A program made the translations under genes and the position numbers. Below, piece after piece: positions 1-63,477 of a stretch of DNA of 64,000 nt. The stretch's first letter is position 1; the number at the start of each line of letters is the position of its first letter. The notes below the pieces were generated by a model. That model ran no database searches. It saw only the letters and a list, made by a program, of their open reading frames with translations, and had not been told where the DNA came from. Source of the stretch: Mobula hypostoma (Eukaryota); assembly GCF_963921235.1 (NCBI RefSeq), contig NC_086097.1, positions 155,126,001 through 155,190,000 on the forward strand, in the 5' to 3' direction.

Positions 1-79
1 GGATCAAGGGCATCATCATTGTGTTGTTAAGCACTGGTTTTTATGATCCTAAGCAGTTCCAGTGAAGGAATACCATGAC

Positions 80-212
80 GTTTCCAATACAAGAGAGCTA
101 GTCATTGACTTCAGGAAAGGAAGAGATGCTCATCCTCCAGGTTACATCAACGGTGATGAGGTCAAGAGGGTTGAGAGCTTCAGGTTCCTAGAAGTAGACA
201 TCATCAATAGGC
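80..212 (+). mobile_element. Rex1/Babar LINE RT C-terminal fragment
   Basis: Translates as TRELVIDFRK...YINGDEVKRVESFRFLEVDI, typical of the Rex1 post-RT region. Confidence 0.7.
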
Positions 213-329
213 TGTATAATGGTTAGACTTTGGTGAGAACAGGTGGAGGTTCTAAGTAAGTTTCTATCAAGTGTTTTTTCTCTTTGTCTAGAAATGCATA
301 CAGTAGCTAGTGCAGTGAGAATAGATCCA

Positions 330-1080
330 GAATGAGTGGTATGTTCTTCATGTAAGATCTGGGAACTCTAGGAAACTTCCAGTCTCCTTGATAACTATAT
401 CTGCATGAAGTGCATTGAGCTCAGCTCCTTAGAGACCATGTTAAAGAACTGGAACTGCAGCTGGATGACCTTCGGTGCTCATAAGGGAGAATGAGGAGTG
501 ATAGATAGGAGCTACAGGAAGGCAGTAGTCACACCTAAGTTGCAGGATGCAGGAACAGTACCTGATTGACTGTCAGGAGAGGGAAGGGAATAGGCAGTCA
601 GTGTTAAGTACCACTGTGTCCATGCCCCTGAATAATAAGTATATAACTTCGGCTCTTGAACCAAAAGGGGTAACTTTACACAACTTCACTTGACCCATTG
701 AAATGTTCCCACAACCTATGGACTAATTTCAAGCACTCTTCATCTCATATTCTCAATATTTATGGTACTTATTTATTATTTTTATTTCTTTCTTTTGTAT
801 TTGTACTGTCTGTTGCCTTTTGCACACTGGTTGAATGCCGTTAGTACGGTCCTTCAGTGATTCTATTATTTTGTTATTCTATTATTCTATTATGGATTTA
901 TTCAGCATGTGCACAACAGAATGAATGTCAGGGTTGTATATGGTGACATATATGTAATTGATAACAAGTTTACATTGAACTTTGGATTCCGTTTGTGAGG
1001 TTGGGGGCGGGGGGGGAGTGACTTGCCTAGGTGAAGCCGTGGCAACAGGGTCTCTGGTACTGAGTCTGGCTCCAGTGGTT
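330..1080 (+). mobile_element. CR1 LINE ORF1 remnant (zinc finger/leucine zipper), split by a Rex1 tail
   Basis: VVCSSCKIWE...YICMKCIE...VKELELQLDDLR and PLNNKY motifs; sequence resumes at about 984. Confidence 0.7.
650..983 (+). mobile_element. Rex1/Babar 3' UTR inserted into CR1 ORF1
   Basis: Same 3' UTR as copies near 45125-45405 and 47220-47540; AACTT occurs at both junctions. Confidence 0.7.
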
Positions 1081-1704
1081 GAACCCAATAGAGAAAGGGC
1101 AATTTTGCATTCAGTGTCATGTATTGAACCAGATTTGAATAGGGGGCTTAAGATAAAAGAACACTTAGGAGGTAGTGATCACAATAAGACAGAAGTTTGA
1201 GAGAAAAGCTAAAGTCAAATGTATTAGGATTACAATGGAATGAAGGGAATTACAGAGTCTTGATAAAGGAGCTGGCCAAAATTGATTGGAAGGGGTCACT
1301 AGTAGGGATGATGGCAGAACAGTGATGGTTGGAGTTTCCAGGAGCAATTTAGAAGGTGCAGGATAGGTACATCCCAAAGTATTCAAAAGGGAGGATGAGG
1401 AATCCGTGACTGACAAGGGATGTCAAAGACAACATAAAAGCAAAAGAAAGGGTACATTATAGAAGAAAACAGGGGGAAGTTAGAGGATTGGGAAGATTTT
1501 AAAAATTAACAGAAGGCACCTAGAAAAACATATGGAGAGAAAAGATTATCTATGAAGGTAAGCAAGGCAACAATATAAAAAAGGACACCAAAAGTTTTTT
1601 TTTCAAATATATAGAGAGTAAAAGACAGGTGAGAATGGATATGAGATCGCTGGAAGATGATGCAGGAGAAATAGTAATGGGAGACAAGAAATGGCTGATG
1701 AATT

Positions 1705-2387
1705 TGTAAGGGGTTTCTTCTTTTATGTTACTGCATAGGCTAATTAAAATGGCTTCTTTGTTGTGTTAACTGCTGAGAAAGTTCTCTCGCTAGCAGCTTG
1801 TTTGGGTTATATTATTGATAAGAGAAAGAACGATAAATTGGGATAGATGTTATTCTTTCTTGTGTGTCTGTAAGCTATTGTGATGCATGGGTTTTTGGGG
1901 AGAAGGCGCGATGAGGAGAGAGAGAGTGGATGCGATGTTGTGAGCTGGCCAACGAGGCAGACCCCGAGGCAGACCCTGAGCTGAAGTCCGAGGTCTAGGG
2001 TCTTCAGCAAGGAGAAGAGACAAAGACAGACTCGTGTGGAGTGTCTGGTTGACCACCGTGGTTGGTCCCAGGCAATGGGTCGAGGTGGTCAGAGGGGATC
2101 GAATGGTGAATAGAGAATCGTTACTAGAGTTCCAACTGTTTATGCGTGAAGAGGTTTGGTGCCTTTTACTTTCCTTTTATATTTTATCTCTATTAATTAC
2201 ATAGTTCCAATAATATCTATAAACTGTAATCATTTACTCATATATGGTGTATTGTCTGTTATTTGGCGGGGTGGGGTACATCACACAGCATCCACAACAA
2301 ACACAGTTTGGCAGGGCCGAAGGCTGCTTCTCCAGACGACAGCGAGTTGAGCAAGCCTGAGGCTTACCGGGGGGGGGGGGGGCTACA
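1705..2387. mobile_element. Solo LTR (683 bp), probably Gypsy type
   Basis: TGTA...TACA termini; AATT at 1701-1704 and 2388-2391; removing it restores the CR1 sequence GATGAATTTAATAAG. Confidence 0.9.
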
Positions 2388-3422
2388 AATTTAATAAGGA
2401 CTTTGTGTCACTGTTCACTGTGGAAGAAGATGCTAGCAGTATGCCAGAAAATCAAGAATTTTAAGGGGCAGAAGTGAGTATAGTGTTTTTACTAAGGGAA
2501 GTTGCTTGGGAAGCTGAAAGGTCTGAAGGTAGATAAATTACCTGGACGAGATGGAATGCAGCACTGGGTTATGAAAGAGATGGTGGAGCTGTTATTAATG
2601 ATCTTTCAAGAATCACTGGATTCTGGAATGGTTCTGGAGGAATGCAAAATCACAAATGTCACTCCACATTTTAAGAAGGGAGGGAGGCAAAAGAAAGGAA
2701 ATTAAAGGGCAGTTAGCCTGACTTCAGTGGTTGGGAAGATCTGCAAATCCATTATTAAGGATGAGATTTTGGGGTACTTGGAGGCCCATGATAAAATATG
2801 CCAAATTCAGCACAGTTTCCTTAAGAGAAAATCCTGTCTGACAAATCTGTTAGAATTCTTTGAGGAAATAGCAGGCAGGGTAGACAAAGGAGAGTCAGGA
2901 GATGTTGTTTACTTGGACTTCAGAAGGCCTTTGACAAAGTGCTGAATATGAGGCTGCTTAACAAGATAAGAGCCCATGATATTACCTAAAAGATGATGGA
3001 TTGAAGACTGGCTGACTGGTAGGAGGCAGTTTGTGAATAAAGGGGGCCTTTTCTGGTTGGCTGCCAGTGTCAGATGGTGTTCTGCAGTGGTTGGTATTGG
3101 GACCACTTCTTTTCAACATTATATGTCAATGATTTGGATAATGGAATTGATGGCTTTATGGATAAGTTTAAGGACAATACGTAGAAAGGTGAATGGGCAT
3201 GTAGTGTTGCGAAAGCAAGGTTTTTGCAATAGGATGTAGACAAATCAGGGGAATAAGCAAAGAAGTGGCAGATAAATATAGTGTTGGGAAGTTTAGGGTA
3301 ACGTACTTTGGTTGAAGTAATAAAGGCATAGACTATATTCTAAATGGGGAGCAAGTTCAAAAATCATGCAAAGGCACTTGGAAGCCCTCGTGCAGGATTT
3401 CCTAAAGGTTAACTTGCAAGTT

Positions 3423-3700
3423 CTATTTAATTATTTATTGACATACAGCACAGAATAGGCCCTTCGGCCCATTGATCCACACTGCTCAGCAATCCCCTGT
3501 TTTAATTCCAGCCTAATGACAGGACAATTTCCAGTGACCAATGAACCTACCAACTGATATATCTTTGGACTGTAGAGTTAGCTAGAGCACTCAAAGGAAA
3601 CCCACACAATCACAGGGAGCATTTACAGGCAGCAGCAAGAATTGAACCCAGGTCACTGGTACTTAATGTTGTGCCAACCACTACACTATGATGCTGCCCC
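3423..3700 (-). mobile_element. tRNA-derived V-SINE (HE1-like)
   Basis: Minus strand carries A-box TAGTGTAGTGG, B-box GGTTCAATTC, a central GGGTTTCC...CAGTCCAAAGA V-domain-like block and a CR1-like tail ending in (AAAT)n. Confidence 0.8.
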
Positions 3701-4382
3701 ATGTTTGAGTCGGTGGTAAGGAAGGCAATGTTGGCATTCATTTCGAGAGGACTAGAATACAAAAGCAAGAAGCAGATCTGTAATGCTAAGGATCTATAAG
3801 GCTTTGGTCAGCCTGCACTTGGAGTATTGTGAGTAGTTTTGGGTCCATTATCTCAGAAAATATGTGCTGGCTTTGGAGAAGGCCCAGAAGAGGTTTACAA
3901 GAATGATTCCAAGAATGTAAGGTTCAACATATAAGGAGCGTTTGATGGCTCTAGGCCCGTACTCGCAAGAGTTTAACTGATTGAGAGGGGATCTCATTGA
4001 AACCTATTGAATATTGAAAGGCCTAGATAAATTGGATGTGGATAGGGTGTTTCCTATAGAGAGGGAGTCAAGGACCAGATTGCATAGCCTCACAATAGAG
4101 GGACATCCATTTCGAAAAGAGATGAGGAGAAACCTCTGTTGCCAGAGGGTGATGAATCTGTGGAATTCATTGGCACAGACAGTTGTGCAGGCCATGTCAT
4201 TGGGTTTAGTTAAGGTGGAGGTTGATCATTTCTTGATTAAACAGGGCGTCAAAGGTTATGGGGAGAAGGCAGGAAAAGGGTTTGAAAGGAATAATAAATT
4301 GTCCATGATGGAATGGCAAAGCAGACTTGATAGGCCAAATGGCTTAATTCTGCTCCTTTGTTTTCTGTTCTTATGGTCTTAT

Positions 4383-4972
4383 AAATGCAAGGATGTAATG
4401 CTCAAGCACTATAAGGTATCGATAAGGTATTAGTCAGACGACACGGAATACTGTGTGCAGTTTTGACCCCCTTTATCTAAGAAAAGTTGTTCTCATTTTG
4501 TAGACAGTCCAGAAGAGGTTTATGAGAATGATTCTGGGAATGAAAGAGTTAATGTATGAGGAGTGTGCAATGGTTCTGTGCCTGTACTCACTGGAGTTTA
4601 GAAGAATGAGGAGGAATCACAGTGAAACCTATTAAATATTGAAAATCTTAGATAGAATGGATATGGAGAGAATTTCTTTTATTGTGAGGGACTTTGGGTC
4701 CAGAGGGCACAGCCTCAGAATAGAAGGATGTCCATTTAGAAAAGAGATGAGGGGGAATTTCTTTAGGTAGAGGGTGGTGAATCTGTGGAATTTATTGCCA
4801 GAGACACCTGTGGAGGTCAAGTCATTGGGTATACTTAAAGTGGGCATTGATAGTTTCTTGATTTGTCAGGGTATCAATGCTTATGGGAAGAAGGCAGGAG
4901 AATGGGGTTGAAAGGAATAATAAATCAGCCATGATCAAAAGGTTCTGCAAGCTTATGGCTTATGGTCTATGA
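4383..4972 (+). mobile_element. CR1 LINE 3' fragment
   Basis: RVVNLWNLLP-coding region and CTTATGG tail. Confidence 0.85.
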
Positions 4973-5559
4973 CCCTCACAATTTTTTATAACTCTATAAT
5001 GTCTGTATGTCTTTTAAGCTTGTGACAAAGAGGGATGTGATGGAATTGCTTCTCCTGTCTTTCTAAGTGATAGAGATTATATGTCTGGGAGAAGTTATCA
5101 TGGAAAACCTAACTCAGGACATGCAAATAAATCAAACATAAGATACTGTGCTTCAGACCAATAGTTGGAAGGGAAATCTGAAGGGAAGTATTGAGAAAGA
5201 AACTAAGAGAATAGTTGCTATAATTTTACCTTTCAGATTAGGTACGGAGTGCTGGCTTTCTCTATTGGCCCACATGGTATGTATTCTTCAAATTCCAGCT
5301 TTGTCTCCTGAACCAGCTGTCCTGGGATGGGATTGAATTTGTTATTGTTTTTTTCACTTTTATTGATGTTGATGGTGCTATTGAGCTAAATCTGTAAGGA
5401 AGATGACTCATTCAAAAGATGTGCATGTACTTTGCCAGAGGTTGGATTGAAGCAGAAAATGCTGCAGAAGGGAGAAAATCTTGATGCAGAATGGAAATTC
5501 TGAAATTTCTAAAAGCTAAAACTTTCCTGAAGCCGGAGGCATGCTGTTTGCTTCCAGCA

Positions 5560-7298
5560 GCTGGAGAGATTGTGGAGGCATTAACAATGATCTTTCAACA
5601 ATCGATGGATTCTGGCATTTTACTGGATGACTGGAAAATTGCAAATGTTACTCTGCTATTTAAGAAGGGTGGGAGGCAGCAGAAAGGAAACTATGGCCCT
5701 GTTAGCTTGACATCAGTGGTTGGTAAGTTGTTGAAATTGATGGTTAGGGATGAGATTACGGAGTACCTGGAGGCACATGACAAGATAGGCCAAAGCCAGC
5801 ATAGTTTCCTGAAAGGAAAATCCTGCCTGACAAACCTACTGCAATTCTTTGAGGAAATTACAAGCAGGGTAGACAAAGTAGATGCAGTAGGCGTGGTGTA
5901 CTTGGATTTTCAGAAGGTCTTTGACAAGCTGCCGCACATGAGGTTGCTTAGCAAGATAAGTGCCCATGGAATTACAGGGAAGTTACTAGCATGGGTGGAG
6001 CATTGGCTGATCAGCAGAAAGCAGAGAGTGGGAATAAAGGGATCCTATTTTGGCTGGCTGCCGGTTACCAGTGGAGTTCCACAGGAGTTGGTGTTACAAT
6101 GAATGTCAATGATTTGGACTATGGTATTAATGGTTTGTGGCTAAACTTGTCGGTGATACAAAGATAGGTGGAGGAGCAGGTAGTGTTGAGGAAACAGTGC
6201 CTGCAGAGAGACTTAGATAGTTTTGGGGAATGGGTAATGAAGAGGTAAATGAAATACCATGTTGGAAAGTGTATGGTCACGCAGTTTGGTGGAAGAAATA
6301 AATGGGCAGACTATTATTTAGATGGGGAGAGAATTCAAAATGCAGAGATGCAAAGGGACTTGGGAGTCCTTCTGCACGATACACTAAAGGTTAACCTCCA
6401 GCTTGTGTCGGTTGTGAAGAAGGCAAATGCAAAGTTGGCATTCATTTATAGAGGTATAAAATATAAGAGTAGGGATGTGATTTTGAGGCTCTATAAGGCA
6501 CTCGTGAGACCACACTTGGAGTATTGTGTGCAGTTTTGGGCTCCTTAAAGGTCCCGAGTTCGAATCCAACTGGCTCCCCTGCACACTTTCCAGCCGTGCT
6601 GGGTTACCAGCTGGTGATCTCTTTGGAAACTCACCCGGCAGAAGGCAATGGCAAACCACTGCTGTAACTTCTCTGGTACGCGGTTCCCCACTACGTCAGA
6701 GAAGCGTGGGGGAAAATCGTCCGCTAACCGGAGAAACTCCAGATGTGATGTACCTTTCCTTTATTTTAGAAGGGATATACTGACATTGGAGAGGGTTCAG
6801 AGAAGATTCATGAGAATGCTTCCAGGAATGAAAGGGTTACCATATGAGGAACGTCTGGCAGCTCTTGGGCTGTATTCCCCAGAGTTCAGGAGAATGAGGG
6901 GGGATCTCATAGAAACATTCGGAATGTTAAAGGACCTGAGCAGGTTAGATATGGCAAAGTTATTTCCCATTGTAGGGGATTCTAGGACAAGAGGGCACGA
7001 CTTCAGGACTGAAGGGCGTCCATTTAGAACTGAGATGTGGAGGAATGACTTTAGTCAGAGGGTGGTCAATCTGTGGGATTTGTTGCCATGAGCGGCTGTG
7101 GAGGCCAAGTCATTGGGTGCATTAAAGGCAGAGATAGATAGGTTCTTGATTAGCCAGGCCATCAAAGGGTATGGGGTGAAAGCAGGGGAGTGGGGATGAC
7201 TGGAAAAATTGGATCAACCCATGATTGAATGGCAGAGCAAACATGATGGGCTGAAAGGCCTACTTCTGCTCCTGTATCTTATGATCTGATGGTCTTAT
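5560..7298 (+). mobile_element. 5'-truncated CR1 LINE (RT and 3' UTR)
   Basis: ORFs 5491-6102 (WKIANVT..., YLDFQKVFD, SGVPQ), 6249-6548 (LVRPHLEYCVQFWAP) and 6648-7091 (RGDLIETF); CR1 tail. Confidence 0.92.
6548..6760 (+). mobile_element. 5'-truncated tRNA-derived SINE with RTE-type motif, inserted in CR1
   Basis: B-box GAGTTCGAATCC, GAAGGCAATGGCAAACCAC motif and ACCTTTCCTTT tail; it splits the CR1 sequence GCTCCTTA/TTTTAGAAG. Confidence 0.7.
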
Positions 7299-8573
7299 AG
7301 GTCTCTTTTAGCTATTACCAATGAGCAGCATGTGCCAACAAGAGATGAGATCTTAGTGAGAGGATAGTTCTGGGGTAGGGGTAACATCCTTACTGGAAGG
7401 AAGAAAGTTGGCATAAGATTTGATTGGAGATTTCTAATGGTCTGAAGAGCAATAAGTCAGCATTGTCCAACCCCACAACATTAACCACTGCTGCAACTGT
7501 TTTGTGAGTGGCCTCAAACAATTACTTTCAAGGTCTGATGTCTGAATATCTGAAGAAATTATAACGAAAGTGAAACAACATAAATTAAGGTTTGGAAAAG
7601 CCTTTATGATAAATTTGAGCCTGGGCTAAAATAAAATAACTTCCCACCAATTGGTCTGTTTCAGAACAGACATTCTATTATCTAGCAGAGCAAGGTAATA
7701 ATAGTCACCAGAATGCCCATTTAGCTGAATTGCATTGTTTTCACATTTGTAGCACTTCAGGCAGTGCTTCAGAGCTATCACGTATCTTGTAGGTAGATGA
7801 GACTGTGATTTTTAAGTTCAAATTTGAATCAAGGTTTAGGAGCAAAATTCACAAGTCTCTGTAAAGAGGAAATATAGAAATGAAAATGCCGTTAATTTGA
7901 AGGTGAAACTACAAGTGTTAAAGTATGTCCAGTCTACAGTTCATATGCCTTGGTGTTGTCCATTAGAATCTCTAGCACCATTTTCATTTCAGACCGGTGA
8001 TCTGGTTTATGAAAAATGTCAGTTCAGAATTTTTAAACAGTTGAACAGTATCCTTTTGCATTTAATTGAATTTAATCCACTGCTTAGGCCATCTTAGTGT
8101 ATATTAACATGTGGAGAAACTTTATTGTATGAGAACAAATATCTGTCAGTTCATACTCCATACAAGCAAACATATTTTTTTAAAATCTGAAAGCATGAAT
8201 GAGGTTTTTAAAGTTTTCTTGGTATAGGATGCAAGATGCTAATGAAAAAAAAGAAATCACTAAGTAGTGTAATCAAGTTAATGTTAGAAAAATTGGAAAT
8301 CTAGTAAATTATTTTATGAGATTCAATTGCACTGACAGGAAGACAGGGTCTCCAGCAGTGGGGTTAGCATCATAGGATACTGGTTTGAAATAACTGGTAA
8401 GTGAGGTGTTATAAAAAAAATGTGTTTGCAAAGCGAGTTGTTGTGGCCTGGAATTCTTTCTCTAAACGAATGGATAAAGCCCCAAAGTAGATAAGATTAG
8501 ATATGTATTTATGAAACAGTAAAGATCTATAGAGATAAAACCATTGAAGGAAACAAATGGAAAGCTTTTTACA

Positions 8574-9421: not shown

Positions 9422-10808
9422 AGGGTATAAGAATCATTCCCATAGAAGATGAAGAAATTCAAAAAAGAGAAAATATTTAGCCATAAATTAATTCAAGCAG
9501 GAATGGAATCTAAAGTTTTATTTCTCCTTTCTGATCTGGGAACAATGGCTTGGATCAAATCAATAATTATTGCATTATTGAAATGGTACTGAATATTAAT
9601 TCTGAGCCCAAGTTCAATATTAACCTCATCACTTTAAGCAGCAAAATCCAATGAATTGTTCTAACTTATCAGGTGAAGAGCTAAAAGCCATTTATAAGAT
9701 GTACTTGAGGGAATAGTTTAAATCTGCCAATATCATCATGAAATTAGTAACCCTTAATATAACTCTTCATCTTAGTGTAAATTACTATTTGATGTGTCCG
9801 TTTGTAATGGCATGTGCTGTTAACACAGTTATTTGTTTTAGAAGATAGTGTCCAATATTTTTACTGTAAGGGCTCTCATCCGCTATAGAAATACTTGACA
9901 AATAGATATAAATCTGGAATTTGTTTGACTATAAAATCACAATTGTCTTGATGTGTGGGGAAGATATCTGCATCAAAGCTGATTTAGTCCATAGGGGGCC
10001 AATATCCCAATGCAAACTACATAAAATATATCATTGCCAGAGACCTTTCTACTAATGAAGAATGTATTTTCTTATTGAAAGGAATACAATTAGGCCTTTG
10101 GCAGTTCAATAAAGAAAATATTCCAGCATCAAATCACAAAATATTGAAGGGGCAGCTGTCTTAGTCTCTGCCGAATAATGTGTTACAAGAAGAGAATGCA
10201 GCAATGTCAACACAAGATCTAAACAAAGAAGCAGAAACTCATTGATCTTTAGTGTTAAATGGATGCTATTGCATCAAAACTACATTTCTCTTAATAAGTA
10301 ACACTGATGGTCCAACCAAGTCTCTATCCATTGATTTTTCATCTGAAGCCTTAGAGGCTAAATCATATACTGTATAAGTTGCACGATAATACGAGCATTT
10401 TCATTCTATCAGCCCTGTTCCACTGGTCAATTAAATCATACCTAACCTGTATGTCTGCTCTGTTCAAAAGCTAATGAACTGTACCCTTAGGCATAGATAG
10501 CGAATAAAAATGTTTTTCATCTTGACTCAGCTCTCACAACATTTTGGGGAGAGAATTTCAGAATTCCACAAATGTCTTTTGAAAAATCTCTTCTCTTCCC
10601 GAACTTAGAACCAGCTAGAATTATTCATTTCTTGACTAATTTGGTTTGAAATAAGGAATGAATGGGAAAGCAACTGTACACCCATGTGACTAATCATCTT
10701 GAAAAAACTGAGAAATTAGCATAGCACTAATTTTCCCTTTGTGAAGCAAATAGAAGTTACTGTAGGTGTCAAGTAGAATGTGCAGACTGAAATAAGCAAG
10801 AGGAAATA

Positions 10809-11575
10809 CAGGTGGCCCTCAGTATCCACAGGGGATTGGTTCCGGGACCCCCCCCACGGATACCAAAATTTGTGGATGCTCAAGTCCTTTATATAAACTG
10901 GCATAGTATTTGCATATAACCTACGCACATCCTCCCGTATACTTTAAATCATCTCTAGATTACTTATAATACCTAATACAATGTAAAAACTATGTAAATA
11001 GTCGTTATACTGTATTGTTTAGGGAATAATGACAAGAAAAAAAAAGTCTGTACATGTTCAGTACAGACGCAACCATCGTAGCTCTTCTGGGAACGCTGAT
11101 GCTGCCTCAGCAAAAATAGTGTTCAGCGTTTGTTTTGCAGCGAGCCGTTATAGAGGCAGCGCGCATGCCATAGCTTTGAACTGCGTGAGATTTTCGCTAC
11201 GATTGACAGTGCTGCAATGATTGCAGAAAAGTATGACTTTAATTTTGAAAGGGCTGTCTTCCCAATTCTGGTAAGTGAAACTACACTACATTATTTCTAC
11301 TTAATATAGGCTGTGTATTTATCATATCATTCCTGCTTTTACTATATGTTAGTGTTACTTTAGGTTTTATGTGTTATTTGGTATGATTTGGTAGGTTATT
11401 TTTTGGGTCAGGGAACACTCAAAAACTTTTCCCATATGAATTAATGGTATTTCCTCCTTCACTTTATGTCATTTCTGCTCTACTTTCAGATAGCAGGGGA
11501 AACCTGTGCAGTAATTTTGATCCATGGTCGGTTGATTCCGCGGATGCAGAACCCGTGGATACGGAGGGCCGACCG
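10809..11575. mobile_element. Non-autonomous TcMar-Tigger element, MER2-like ends with an extra internal segment
   Basis: TA at 10807-10808 and 11576-11577; imperfect TIRs CAGGTGGCCCTCAGTATCCACAGG and (reverse complement) CGGTCGGCCCTCCGTATCCACGGG. Confidence 0.88.
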
Positions 11576-12716
11576 TAATGACAAGATCAAGAGAGAAGAA
11601 GAATATAATAGAAAAGTTTTTTTAGAGGCTTAAAAGAATGGAACTCTGTACACTTAACAAGTAAATTTTTGGTATCATTGGGATATTTGCTGCTGATTTA
11701 CACTCATAATTAACCACTCACAAAATGGATACTTAAAATGACAGACTTTCTAGGCCAGAGGTCAACTAATTATTTTTGCAGTGCTTCTTCAGATAGATTT
11801 GGTTTTTCTTCCTCCTGCAATCTTTAATTATAATCAATTATTGTCCTTAATTATAATTTGCTTCCTTTCTAACCTTACTTCCAGCTCTCAAACTCAGTGC
11901 TTAGTTCTTAACTATCATATAGATGGAGTGGCCTGGAAGTTCTTTGGTATGCTAAAGTTTATTGCAATGTTTTTGTGATGGGATTGCCTCAGCAAGGTTA
12001 AATGTTTAAGATTCACTGCTGAATAACCCGATCATAATTTTACTTGTGAGATGTGCCACTCTACAGCACTCCGAGGAAAACATCAAGGGAAGCCTACATC
12101 CAAAGCCTGGTCCTGGAGTTGGCCAAGGGACAACCAATGGTCAGAAATGTCTGTTGAAGATTTGTCAGGGTTTGAATCAATTGTCACCATGGGTCATTGT
12201 GGTCATGCTGAAGAAAAGGGAAGATAAGGGCTTTATTTAGGTTTAAAGGTCATAGAGTCATTGAGTACTACAGCACAGAAACAGGCCTTTTGGCCCTATT
12301 AGTCCATGACAACCTGATCTATGCTATCCCATCTACTTGCAACTAGGCCATATCCCTTTAAACCTCTTCCATCCATCTACCTATCCAAATTTCTCATAAA
12401 TGTTACAAGCATCTACCACTTCTGCTTGTAGCTTGTTCCACACTTCTACTACCCTCTGAGTGAACAAGATTTCCCTCAATTTCCCTTTAAATACTTTACC
12501 TTTCACCTTAAAACTATGACCTTTAGTTCTAGCCTCACCAAAACTGAGGAAGAAAAGTTTGTATGCATTCATCCTATTGATACCTGTTGTGATCTCCCAT
12601 CATTTTCCTGCACTCCAGGAAATAAAGTCCTAGCCTATTTAACTTTACCCTGTATCTCAGCTCCTCAAGTCATGGCAGTATCCTTGTAAACTTTCAAACC
12701 TATTGGTATCTTTCCT

Positions 12717-19604: not shown

Positions 19605-22600
19605 ATGGAGTCTACTATTAATTTTGTCTCTTGGAATACTAACAGTCTTAATCATCCAATAAAAAGGAAAAAAATCTTTTAAGTATTCCGGAGACTTAAA
19701 GCACATATTCTATTTTTACAAGAGACCCATGTGCGGAGGGGGGACAGATTATGTTTTTTTAAGTTCTGGAAGGATAAACACTTCCATTCGAATTCCAATG
19801 CCAAAATTTGAGGAGTTTCTATTTTATAGATCCCTCAATCACTTTTGTGCAACATGATATTATTTCTGATCCGAATGGTAGATTGGTTAGTGGTTTACTC
19901 TTTAATAAAATGGTAGTTTTGGTTAATGTCTATGCTCCTAACCTGGACTATCCGGAATTTTATAAATCATTATTTAATTTGTTCCCGAATTTGAATGAGT
20001 TTTCACTAATCTGGGGCAGAGATCTTAATACTTGTTTATCCTCATTATTGGACCGTTCGGCTCCTTTACAGACTCTACCCAATAAATCTGCAACCTTGAT
20101 TAATTCATTTCTCTCAGATTCCGGGTCAACGGACATTTGGCGTTTTTTGCATCCTCAGGAAAAAGATTTCTCTTTTTTTTCACATGTTCATCATTTCTAT
20201 TCAAGAATTGATTATTTTTTTATTGACTCTCGTCTTATTTCTTCAGTGGTTAAATGTGAATATGACTCTATAACCATTTCAGATCATGCTTCACTTAAGC
20301 TTTCTATTAAAATATTGGCCAATACACAAAATAATAGACAATGGTGTTTTAATTCGCTGTTGCTTCAGGACTTGGATTTTGTTAACTTTATGAATGAACA
20401 GATTGATCTCTTTTTTACAATTAACTGTACAGAGGATATATCCATGAATACCCTTTGGGATACTTTTAAAGCTTATATTCGTGGCCAGATCACCTCGTAC
20501 TCTGCTGCTTTGAGGAAAAGGTTGAAGGAGGAGGAGCTGGTTCTTGTGGATAAGATTAAGGAAATTGATAAGAAATATGCTACAGCTCCCTCTGAGAAGT
20601 TGTATAAACAAAGAACTGAACTTCAAATGGAACACAGTTTATTACTTTCGTCCTCTATTGCAAATCAATTAATGAAAACGAAGCGAATTTTATATACACA
20701 GTGACAAAGTTGGTAAACCGCTGGCTAATCAGTTGAAGACTAACTCTACTAAATTTCAAATTAATCAGATTTATAGTCAAAAAGATCGACTGACATTTGA
20801 TCAAGCTGAGATTAATCAATCCTTTTTTGACTTTTATTCCGACTTATATCAATCAGAGTCTCCACGAGATTCTAAACATGTGTTTGACTTTTTAGATAAC
20901 CTAGATTTCCCTAAGATTTCACACGATATATCTTCTATGTTAGACACTTCCTTTACCACTGATGAGATTAAGAATGTTATTTTTTCTATGAACCCGGGGA
21001 AAGCTCCTGGTCCTGATGGGTTTACCGTGGAATTTTATAAATTTTTTGCATCCTCATTAATCCCTTGGCTATTCAGGGTTCTGGAGGCCTCATTAAAACT
21101 TGGTAAACTACCTGAATCCTTTTATAGAGCATCGATCTCTTTAATATTAAAGAAGGATAAAGACCCTGCTCAATGTGCATCTTATTGACCAATATCTTTG
21201 TTAAATGTTGACTCTAAAATTTTTTCTAAATTATTAGCAAACAGACTAGAAAAAGCACTTCCTTATATTATCTGGGAAGACCAAACGGGCTTTATTAAAA
21301 ATTGTTACTCTTTTTATAATATTCGTACACTTTTAAACATTGTCTATATCCCGTCACAAAATGATCCTGAATGCGTAATTGCCCTAGACGCTGAAAAAGC
21401 CTTTGACAGGGTCGAATGGCCTTACTTACTTAAGGTGCTTGAAATGTTTAACTTCAGCCTGAAATTTATATCCTGGATCAAATTGTTATATCATTCTTCT
21501 ATGGCCTCAGTTCGTACTAACTCTTTAAATTCACCTTTTTTCCCTCTTTTTCGAGGTACCAGACAAGGTTGTCCTCTTAGTCCTTTATTATTTGATATTG
21601 CATTAGAACCTCTTGCAATTGCTATTCGAGAATCTCCTAATATTATTAGTATAACTCGTGGTTTAAAGTCTCATAAAGTATCACTTTATGCTGATGACTT
21701 ACTTTTATATATTTCTAATCCTCAAAAATCTATTCTTGCAGCTTTAGATTTATTAGCACAATTTAGTCTTTTTTCAGGTTATAAGTTAAATCTCAGTAAG
21801 AGTGAACTGTTCCCGATTAATAAGCAAATTCCCTTATATCAGAACCTCCCGTTTAAATTGGGTAATGATCATTTTTCATATCTTGGGATTAAAATTACCT
21901 GTAAACATAAGGATTTATTTAAGACTAATTTCCTACCCTTAATTGATCACATTACACAACTTTCATTTAAATGGTCTCCACTTTATTTAACTTTGATTGG
22001 TCGTATTAATGCTCTTAAGATGTTTATTCTGCCAAAATTTTTATATATATTTCAGGCATTACCGATTTTTGTTCCAAAATCCTTTTTTGACAAAGTTGAC
22101 TCTAAAATTTCTTCATTTATTTGGCAAAATAAAAACCCGAGACTGGGTAGAATACATCTACAGAAAGCTAAGAGAGATGGAGGTTTGGCATTACCAAATT
22201 TTAGATTCTATTATTGGGCAATTAATATTCGACACATGAAATTTTGGTTACTTGACCAAGATACACTATCCATTCCTAAATGGGTAGTATTGGAATTACG
22301 ATCTGCTCAAGGTTATGCACTTGGCTCCATTTTAGGTTCTTCTCTTCCTTTCAATTTGAAACGCCATAAACAGCTTTGTAACCCGATAGTAAAACATACC
22401 TTATGCATTTGGTTTCAATTCCGAAAATTTTTCGATCTTAATCATCTGGGCTAGCGATTCCTATTTTAGGCAACATATTCTTTCCCCCTTCCTCTACGGA
22501 CCATGCCTTTCAAATTTGGAAGACCAATGGTATATCACGGTTTTTGGATTTATTTTTAGATGGCTCCCTTATGTCTTTTGAACAATTATCTAACAAATAT

Positions 22601-23371
22601 AACTTACCAAGAATACATTTTTTAAAATATCTCCAAGTTAGAAATTTCCTAAGTACCATACTTTCTTCCTTTCTGGCGTTACCCCCTACATATATTTTAG
22701 ATACTATGATTAACCTTAACCCAAGTCAGAAAGGTGTAATGGCTATTATTTATAATACTATCATGAAACTTAGGAAAGCTCCTTTCGATAAGATTAGGTC
22801 AGATTGGGAAGAGGAATTGGGCTTCACTATTTTGGCAGATGACTGGGTGTATATTTTACAACTAGTCAATACTTCCTCTATCTGTTCCAAACATTCCCTA
22901 ATTCAATTTAAAATTGTTCTTAGAGCACATATGTCTAAAGATAAATTAGCTCGTTTTTATTCTCATATTAACCCTCTTTGTGACAGATGTCATGGGGAGA
23001 TAGCTTCCTTAACTCATATGTTTTGGTCCTGTCCTACTTTGGAAACTTTTTGGAAAGACATTTTTAATATTATCTCAAAGGTATTGATTACAGATATTTC
23101 TCCCCATCCTATTACCGCTATCTTTGGATTACCTAAGATTTCCAGTAATCTTTCCCCTTCAGCCCATAGAATGATTGCATTTCTTACTTTAATGGTGAAA
23201 AGATGTATTTTACAACATTGGAAGGAGATTAATGCCCCAACTACCTTTTTTTGGTTTTCTCAGATGATACTATGTTTAAATTTGGAAAAAATCAGAAGTA
23301 ATCTTTATGATACTTCAGATAAATTTGAACAGACCTGGAGATCTTTTATTCAACATTTTCATTTAATGTAA
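19605..23371 (+). pseudogene. L1 ORF2 pseudogene (APE endonuclease, reverse transcriptase, CCHC zinc finger)
   Basis: MESTINFVSWN, FLQETH, NVYAPN, SRIDYFF, ISDH, KAPGPDGF, DAEKAFD, RQGCPLSPLLF, YADD and CDRCHGEIASLTHMFWSC; at least 6 stops or frameshifts. Confidence 0.95.
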
Positions 23372-41356: not shown

Positions 41357-42046
41357 CTCTACACATGTTGAGCAGCAGATGTCTTTGGATGGGCACGCAC
41401 GAGGATGTGGCACAGTGGATCAAAAATTGCCCGTGTTGTGTTTTAACTAAAATGCCACACCCTGAGATCCGCCCACCCACCCCGTGAAGTTATTTCTTGC
41501 TTCTAAGCCACTGGAAGTTGTTGCTGTAGATTTCACTGTGCTTGAGCCGGTAACTGATGGGCATGAGAAAGTTTTAGTAGTCACAGACATTTCTACAAAA
41601 TTCCCCCACGCGTTCCCCACTTGGGAACTACAGCAAAGGTGCTCTTGAGGGAATGGTTTTTGAAGTACGGTGTTCCTGAGAGGTTGCATTCTGACCAGGG
41701 CTGTAACTTTGAAAGTGAGGTCATAACTGAGCTTTGCAAACCGTACGGGGTAAAGAAAAGTCGTACTACACCCCAGTGTGTACTAAACACTCAGTGTGAG
41801 CGTTTCAACAGGGCGATGCTTGATTTGTTGCCTACGTTGTCTCCAGAAAAGAAATGCAAGTGGCCAGAGCATCGACTCGAGTTAGTGTATGCGTATAATG
41901 TGACGCCTCACGTAACCACCGGATATTCCCCTTATTACCTACTGTTCTGTGTTGATCCCCACTTGCCTGTGGATGCTCTGCTGGGGCAGGAACAGTCTGT
42001 AGACAGGAAATAGCCACACAGAAGAAACAACTGAATGATGCTCATG

Positions 42047-42550: not shown

Positions 42551-43134
42551 CTCATGCCAGAGCAAAAGAATACTCCGATCAGAAGGCTGCAGAATGCATT
42601 GCCTTACAGGAGCATAAAATTTCAAGACCGTGAACACAGTCGACATCCGGCCCTGTAAGAACGTTCCCACCCCAGCTCCCCAAAGGAGACTGCAAACTCC
42701 GATAATTCAGGCTAGCCCTCGCCTGGGACATGAATCAGATTCTGGGGACTCGGAGAATGGAGTGATACTGGGGTAAATGTGTCAGAACAGGGTGTACAGA
42801 ATCTTGACCCTAGCCTTGACAACATGTTTGCTGGAACTGTACAAACTCCGGGAACTGAGACTGCAGCGCCAGCGACTGCTGATACAAGGTCGGGTGTTGG
42901 TAGTCCTCTCGTTGCAGCATCCTGCGGGAGTAAAAGAGTAACTGCTGGACAGCACTCCAACGCACACCTCGGACCAAGCTCAGTCCGAGATGTGGCCTCC
43001 ATAATTCCTGCAGAACTGTCCCAGATACTGGGTAGTCTAAATTCAGTTCCCTTTAGAGAAGCAGTTAAAGAGGTGAAAAGTACCGTTGTAGAGAGTGAAT
43101 AATTGAGGGCGCTTGCCTGTATTCAGGGGAGAAA

Positions 43135-62646: not shown

Positions 62647-63477
62647 AAAGAAACATCTAAACAAGCCTGATTCATTTTGGAAACAATTCCTGTGGACTGA
62701 TGAAGTTAAAATAGAACTTTTTGTCTGCAATGAACAAAGGTATGTTTGGAGAAAAAAGGGTGCAGAATTTCATGAAAAGAACCCCTCTCCAACTGTTAAG
62801 CATGGGGGTGGATCGATCATGCTTTGGGCTTATGTTGCAGCCAGTGGCATGGGGAACATTTACTGGTAGCGGGAAGAATGAATTCAATTAAATACCAGCA
62901 AATTCTGGAAGAAAACATCACACCATCTGGAAAAAGCCAAATATGAAAAGAGGATGGCATCAACAACAGGATAATGATCCTAAACACACCTCAAAATCCA
63001 CAGTGGACTACCTCAAGAGGCGCAAGCTGAAGGTTTTGCTTTGGCCCTCACAGTCCCCTGACCTAAACATCATCGAGAATCTGTGGATAGACCTCAAAAG
63101 AGCAGTGCATGCAAGACGGCCCAAGAATCTCACAGAATTAGAAACGTTTTGCAAGGAAGAATGGGCAAAAATCTCCCAAACAAGAACTGAAGGTCTATTA
63201 GCTGGCTGCAAAAGGCGTTTACAAGCTGTGATACTTGCCAAAGGGGGTGTTACTAAGTACTGCCATGCAGAGTGCCCAAACTTTTGCTTCAGGCCCTTTT
63301 CCTTTTTTGTTATTTTGAAACTGTAAAAGATGGAAATGAAAAAGTTTTCTTAAAATATTAAAGAAATGTGTCATCTTTAACTTTATGCCATTTGGAATTT
63401 AGTTCATCTTTTACTCGCTTGGCTGTTCACAGTAACAGAAATTTTGACCGGGGTGCCCAAACTTTTGCATGCCACTG
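62647..63477 (+). mobile_element. 3' half of a Tc1 DD34E transposon with IR/DR right end
   Basis: FWKQFLWTDE, KHGGGSIMLW, QQDNDPKH...SPDLNIIE (34 residues between D and E); GTGCCCAAACTTTTGC near 63272 and 63453; ends CACTG followed by TA. Confidence 0.92.

Follow-up and report, generated by a model that had tools for sequence, protein, structure and literature searches.

The TA-flanked element at positions 10809-11575 of the window (the whole 64,000-nucleotide stretch of DNA analyzed here) combines two Tigger (pogo) transposons into one non-autonomous and now dead composite. It spans 767 bp on contig C1 of a 3.48-Gb genome, and two arms of one family, here called outer, enclose the remnant of a second, inner family that lies in the opposite orientation. 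Our overall reading, which we consider probable, is that this composite of two Tiggers resides in a ray and that its outer family came, by horizontal transfer, from a pool of transposons that also reached lizards, whipworms and, putatively, placental mammals (in the form of MER2). The parts of the element, given in window coordinates, are as follows.

10807..10808, no strand: left TA target-site duplication, read from the window sequence.
10809..10832, minus strand: left terminal inverted repeat (TIR) of the outer element, about 24 bp, the 3' end in the transposase sense; 19/24 positions complementary to the right end, and long copies have the same ends.
10809..11079, minus strand: outer left arm, from the 3' non-coding part of that Tigger family and likened to MER2 in the annotation described below; 82-89% identical to long copies and 90-93% to siblings.
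11080..11112, minus strand: remnant of the outer transposase gene, the end of a Tc5-type HTH domain, reading AEAASAFPEE; 33/33 bases identical to long copy L172.
11109..11506, plus strand: remnant of the inner (second) Tigger family, in opposite orientation and with its left terminal repeat lost; 87-98% identical in pieces to L041, L051, L057 and L059, and also matching the full-length copy L152.
11181..11252, plus strand: what is left of the C-terminal end of the inner transposase (24 codons by translation); 98.6% identical to L152 over 71 bp.
11479..11506, plus strand: inner right TIR; the next two bases are TG in this copy, TA in most siblings.
11512..11575, minus strand: outer right arm with its TIR, the 5' end in the transposase sense; agrees with the termini of long copies and of 660-bp copies.
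11576..11577, no strand: right TA target-site duplication, read from the window sequence.

The longest exact run within the outer TIRs of the window copy is 8 bases, shorter than the 9-base seed of the repeat finder, which therefore missed them. The left 269 bp, used as a query against its own genome, returned 3096 first-look candidates. Forty of these were scored, and the 39 full-length matches besides the element itself were 90-93% identical to the query, which shows that the element is not a product of chance. Both outer ends were present in 27 of 30 fetched loci, and TA flanked both sides in 19 of these 27; in a second count the corresponding figure was 20 of 26 siblings with both ends. 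The fetched loci, which are the best matches and not a random sample, fall into size classes of 344-350 bp (3 of 27), 410 bp (one copy), 637-676 bp and 820-1022 bp, to which the window copy is added. An initial annotation made from the sequence alone had described a single TA-flanked Tigger element with TIRs at this position. The flanking TA dinucleotides, the TIRs and the Tigger-type, non-autonomous character were all confirmed; its unity was not, as positions 11109-11506 are left over from a second family instead of being outer interior. The outer TIRs (∼24 bp) and the inner ones (∼25-28 bp) both lie within the Tigger limit of 40 bp or less, and the element has the attributes of a MITE: it codes for no protein, its numerous copies fall into uniform size classes, and it has its ends in common with a transposase-bearing partner. 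The observed/expected CpG ratio is 0.74 in the element and only 0.20 and 0.06 in the two 1-kb flanks. Comparison with the siblings shows that an 88-bp deletion after the inner C-terminus remnant is private to the window copy.

Copies of the 660-bp class retain part of the HTH domain on the minus strand, and six long outer copies of 2241-2461 bp, found from DDE_1 matches, combine the same ends with a transposase gene and form two subtypes. All six match the window left arm in their 3' arm at 82-89% identity over 217-259 bp. The middle of the outer transposase gene, used as a query, brought up 31 candidates, and in 14 the match extended over at least 360 bp. None of the six long copies examined has a whole open frame, the longest frames being 505 and 508 amino acids, and the outer family appears to be dead. 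Pfam assigns HTH_Tnp_Tc5 and DDE_1 domains to the transposases of both families, which have DD32D spacing, and adds CENP-B_N for the inner one; CENP-B_N was not scored for the N-terminally truncated frame of L159. The domain set that marks a Tigger transposase (CENP-B/HTH_Tnp_Tc5 plus DDE_1 with DD29-36D spacing) is thus found in long copies L152, L159 and L164, outside the window copy. Neither a pattern search for long outer copies, which recovered one short variant only, nor the first 30 DDE_1 loci, none of which held a partner of the outer or inner family, added to this set. The last ∼20 bp of the left arm gave 71 matches in 230 loci, followed by the gene remnant in 68 and by the short-form join in three; this segment is common to all short classes and absent from 14 of 14 long copies, so that the direct parent of the short classes either lies outside the sampled copies or was itself a mosaic of the two subtypes. 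A copy of an unrelated Tigger family contains 135 bp of the outer arm (L071:2889-3022), with 93-97% identity to the siblings.

The interior, when used as a query, gave 4350 candidates, and among 30 retrieved loci the outer right arm accompanied it in 16 while 14 were stand-alone. Seven of the 14 stand-alone copies possess both inner ends, are 614-1268 bp long and TA-flanked, and constitute a different element. The full-length inner form in L152 (positions 1731-3972, 2242 bp) carries an open frame of 581 amino acids that encodes CENP-B_N, HTH_Tnp_Tc5 and DDE_1 domains (Pfam) with DD32D spacing. This frame (L152:2091-3836, G000:C71:44919090-44920835) is uninterrupted although its DNA is ∼6.6% diverged from the inner family majority, and it may reflect either chance survival or early domestication. 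A younger inner subtype, L165-L171, lies only 2-4% (non-CpG) from the majority. The composite copies have common breakpoints and a 24-bp deletion, yet unrelated flanks, from which it follows that the composite moved as one unit.

From this anatomy and the established biology of pogo elements, a mechanism can be proposed. An outer element of the 660-bp class would have received an inner element at a TA lying ∼65 bp in from its 5' end, and a single deletion would then have taken the inner left end together with ∼300 bp of the outer interior. Outer transposase acting in trans could still recognize the intact outer ends and carry the composite, by cut-and-paste, to fresh TA sites. Inner transposase would be left with one of its two ends and could not excise the passenger any more. 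Copies made in this way would have decayed neutrally since.

Against the majority of 11 composite copies, the window copy shows 94.5% identity, a non-CpG distance of 0.029 and changes at 27% of CpG sites, and 26 copies of the 660-bp class have a mean non-CpG distance of 0.034, a value biased by the choice of best matches. Ray copies overall lie ∼3% (non-CpG) and ∼5.5% (total) from their own majority; the long outer copies are 0.043-0.074 from a pooled majority, a range inflated by mixed subtypes. In one shark the mutation rate has been put at 7e-10 per base per generation (PMC10587355), and MER2 was active near the split of the placental orders (PMC1914374). Given such slow mutation, the 3% distance in the ray could correspond to an age similar to that of the MER2 burst. 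A per-generation shark rate fixes no age, and by our inference a distance of 3% would fit ages between tens of millions and a few hundred million years.

That the host is a ray, as had been proposed as probable from the sequence alone, is borne out by two globin exons of the same genome, whose best single-domain matches are chains A and B of PDB 1cg5 (48 of 73 residues identical to chain B by hand count), an entry that we take to be stingray hemoglobin. It is further borne out by public proteins of the stingrays Hypanus and Hemitrygon that are 88-93% identical, over partial lengths, to the transposases of both families. More than 20 globin exon matches lie on one contig (G000:C36:102.3-103.2 Mb), a large globin array. 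A 328-amino-acid annotated protein with several isoform accessions (P0010 and P0130) is common to Hypanus and Hemitrygon; its N-terminal 176 amino acids derive from the inner transposase (89-93% identity), and judged by sequence it is possibly an exonized insertion common to stingrays.

The element might be mammalian DNA contaminating or misjoined in a ray assembly, which the annotation had named as a way of refuting its claim; in favor of this, no read or contig was recovered that bridges a junction. We give it hardly any credence. Candidates number in the thousands and lie on many chromosome-scale contigs with unrelated flanks, and this copy number largely refutes contamination; the element is joined to a second family of which this genome holds many copies, and the stingray proteins in public annotations include both families. 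The ray copies stand ∼3% (non-CpG; ∼5.5% in total) from their majority, as against a median of 18.5% for human MER2 (PMC1914374). Contigs of run X17, which is from another organism, carry the left flank at ∼5% divergence, covering positions 9700-10689 with 54 substitutions in ∼1000 bases; X17 alone gave long cover of this flank, and the little or no cover from X1, X5 and X18 proves nothing. Across the sequencing runs at least half of the words were found in 8 of 23 rows (organisms A and B), with shares of 0.21-0.26 in four rows and 0.10-0.13 in eight, and such small shares are no evidence.

The proteins of the two families place the ray elements among relatives in distant hosts. The majority outer transposase is 88% identical to protein P0135, 74% to a protein of the skink Tiliqua, 66-68% to proteins of the whipworms Trichuris suis and T. 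muris, 61-63% to those of elephant, dugong and opossum, 46-52% to those of coelacanth and two bony fish, and 36-39% to the Tiggers of Carcharodon, Pristis, Narcine and Chiloscyllium. Outside the two stingrays that have both families, no named shark or ray Tigger exceeds 44% identity. For the inner transposase, identity reaches 77-81% with the full-length proteins P0001-P0004, 66-73% with Trichuris suis and no more than 48% with any other named non-stingray protein compared. In a tree of 25 rows, which we chose from ∼240 listed matches, the ray outer transposase, P0135, the skink group and Trichuris form a clade with 100/100 support, with the mammal and Sceloporus group as its sister, and Trichuris is also sister to the ray inner group (100/100); a quick tree of 56 rows agrees. 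For both families, the element tree conflicts with the host tree, the pattern by which horizontal transfer is recognized. When the ray outer transposase was grouped with three Tiggers of other chondrichthyans, the approximately unbiased (AU) test rejected that grouping (p 7e-96); this counts for little in our view, since ancient paralogous families would be rejected as well.

As a calibration, an exon of the host cholinesterase was compared with PDB 5k5e, presumably human butyrylcholinesterase, and was identical at 278 of 469 positions (59%) by hand count. The 74% identity of the ray and skink transposases exceeds this value, in a comparison of different species pairs, for one gene and at the protein level only. 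Use of the cholinesterase as a clade marker was rejected, the exon being equidistant from butyryl- and acetylcholinesterase entries, and it served for calibration only. Descent accounts poorly for a nematode that is nested twice within vertebrate elements and for transposases that are more alike between fish and lizard than a host enzyme is to its counterpart. By this route, which is independent of the supposed likeness to MER2 on which the annotation had argued, its proposal of horizontal transfer gains support at the level of the family: the transposase groups with skink, whipworm and P0135 at 66-88%, against 59% for the host exon. We hold with considerable confidence that the outer family is of horizontal origin, and on protein comparisons both parent families are likely to have arrived by jumping between species. 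The identities of 66-74% are those of old events and indicate neither donor nor direction.

Among the best 120 matches of each search, which cover annotated copies only, the close and named relatives come from stingrays, a skink and whipworms, plus a few short turtle fragments at 64-74%, a range measured against one decayed copy. The closest proteins, P0135 and P0001-P0004, could themselves be derived from rays and so prove nothing about transfer. P0135 and the P0001 cluster are open-frame transposases on contigs of 2.0-2.5 kb, about the length of one element, 88% and 81% identical to the respective ray majorities, which suggests young or active relatives. A short-protein search for fragments of the outer transposase in mammals gave no named mammal in the best 120 of 331 matches. 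The 77 loci found in metagenome contigs were all distant (at most 44% over long segments), the prokaryote genomes searched held no match, and Rfam gave none on four loci.

Vertical inheritance would instead make the outer family an old Tigger lineage, passed down from early jawed vertebrates and still active in rays, with any likeness to MER2 limited to constrained termini or overstated. Related transposases are indeed widespread in amniotes at 53-63% (turtles, lizards, a marsupial and afrotherians), and sharks and rays evolve slowly, as the shark rate given above illustrates (PMC10587355). Protein databases hold annotated copies only, a bias that could conceal decayed shark copies and makes absence from sharks and skates weak evidence. 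Against this, two whipworm species fall inside the ray clade with 100/100 support, a position impossible by descent; the ray and skink transposases are more alike (74%) than the host enzyme is to its PDB orthologue (59%); and the best named bony-fish relatives reach no more than 52%. We therefore consider vertical descent unlikely and retain horizontal arrival as the preferred reading.

The relation to MER2 is a separate question. The annotation proposed that positions 10809-11077 and 11513-11575 match the eutherian MER2 consensus almost base for base. We likewise take the left arm and the right end to be MER2-like and the 660-bp interior to be MER2B-like, and assume that the junction segment of the short ray classes is also found in MER2. 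Searches of papers and supplements turned up no printed MER2 consensus, and the match is a putative one. The ray family may well be the same as MER2. Repbase lists MER2 and MER2B as non-autonomous Mariner-class elements (PMC5753468), and human MER2 has a consensus of 345 bp and ∼8,400 fragments at a median divergence of 18.5% (PMC1914374). The ray element and MER2 are both non-autonomous, Tigger-type and TA-flanked, and the shortest ray class (344-350 bp) agrees in length with the MER2 consensus. The window copy departs from MER2, which is ∼345 bp long with a simple interior, in being 767 bp long and containing a second transposon. Two differences from MER2 and MER2B concern the family as a whole: the ray genome retains transposase-bearing relatives of 2.24-2.46 kb, and its copies are ∼5.5% from their majority, whereas human copies are at 18.5-19.2% (PMC1914374).

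Horizontal arrival in rays is also compatible with an outer family that is a cousin of MER2, in which case a larger Tigger clade would have sent members that had diverged separately into rays and into mammals. Such a history would account for the lack of a named eutherian protein in the ray clade among the listed matches, for the place of the mammalian proteins in a sister clade at 61-63%, and for the contrast in length between the 767-bp window element and the 345-bp MER2. MER2, however, has no coding capacity and is invisible to protein searches, so that the missing eutherian protein is what a non-coding family would be expected to leave; the transposases of elephant, dugong and opossum in the sister clade neither show nor refute a link between rays and eutherians. 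The three siblings (of 27) at 344-350 bp fall on the length of the MER2 consensus (PMC1914374), and we judge a cousin relationship rather improbable.

Identity of the outer family with MER2, if it holds, would lead to a bolder scenario. Because whipworms are among the nearest named non-ray relatives of both families, nematodes come to mind as carriers. Trichinelloid nematodes parasitize mammals, reptiles and elasmobranchs. We speculate that the same transposon gave rays this family and placental mammals MER2 and MER2B, its long form with the transposase gene surviving in the ray, that a second Tigger known from mammals invaded the same rays, and that trichinelloid nematodes shuttled both, with the shared junction segment marking a near-identical element in both hosts; taken as a whole, this is a tentative proposal that may well be wrong. 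Were the MER2 match true, the slowly evolving ray genome would provide a lightly decayed record of the MER2 element, including its transposase gene, the origin of MER2 and its mobilizing enzyme could be tested directly, and the known transfers would gain a firmly anchored one between fish and mammals, for which a parasite is the candidate vector. Without the match, the ray elements are an ordinary and clean case of two Tigger families, probably transferred, and of a composite that spread as a unit.

For the inner family, we presume MER82 to be a likely, though putative, relative. MER82 is a Mariner-class element (PMC5753468) with a consensus of 653 bp (PMC1914374), within the 614-1268 bp of the stand-alone inner copies that have both ends; the ray differs in retaining a full-length form with the open 581-amino-acid frame. 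MER6 is a composite MITE with mariner ends, a V-SINE and a puzzling distribution in fish and mammals (PMC6887750). It shares with the window element the plan of a non-autonomous DNA transposon that spread with a captured mobile element as passenger, and differs in its ends and in its SINE passenger; by eye, positions 1-638 of the consensus printed there gave no match, and this comparison ruled out MER6 as the inner element (PMC6887750).

Both ray families fit the Tigger definition set out by Gao et al. 2020 (TA duplication, TIRs of <40 bp; PMC7386202), their CENP-B_N, HTH_Tnp_Tc5 and DDE_1 domains and DD32D spacing being within its DD29-36D range. Tigger transfer involving sharks is a kind of event already known, as Diaby et al. 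2022 described horizontal transfer between eutherians and two sharks (PMC9219625); those cases concern other species and, by the terminal motifs seen there, other families than the ray ones (PMC9219625). Family-specific motifs found neither ray family in the supplements of three pogo/Tigger surveys, as far as the visible part of their long cells extends, and one Trichinella element in these supplements has the first 12 bases of the outer end in common. The literature searched, which excludes most subscription journals, yielded no earlier report of these two ray families or of MER2 in rays.

Several further mobile elements were encountered in the genome and in the window. Loci L061-L090 include no fewer than four additional pogo/Tigger families, each having ends of its own, as well as four single-copy long frames of 533-608 amino acids that may be domesticated TIGD-type genes. 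Window positions 19778-23371 hold a near full-length LINE ORF2 in four adjacent frames with an RVT_1 domain and few breaks, which we take to be L1/Tx1-like. A weak integrase match below the Pfam cut-off at 41567-42013 and a neighboring frame at 42712-43122 are, from their sequence, probably a decayed LTR-retrotransposon fragment, and a Tc1-type transposase fragment with a DDE_3 domain is found at 62892-63326. Over positions 1-8000, the GC skew is strongly positive (0.23-0.30) across CR1/L2-type LINE fragments that lie in one orientation.
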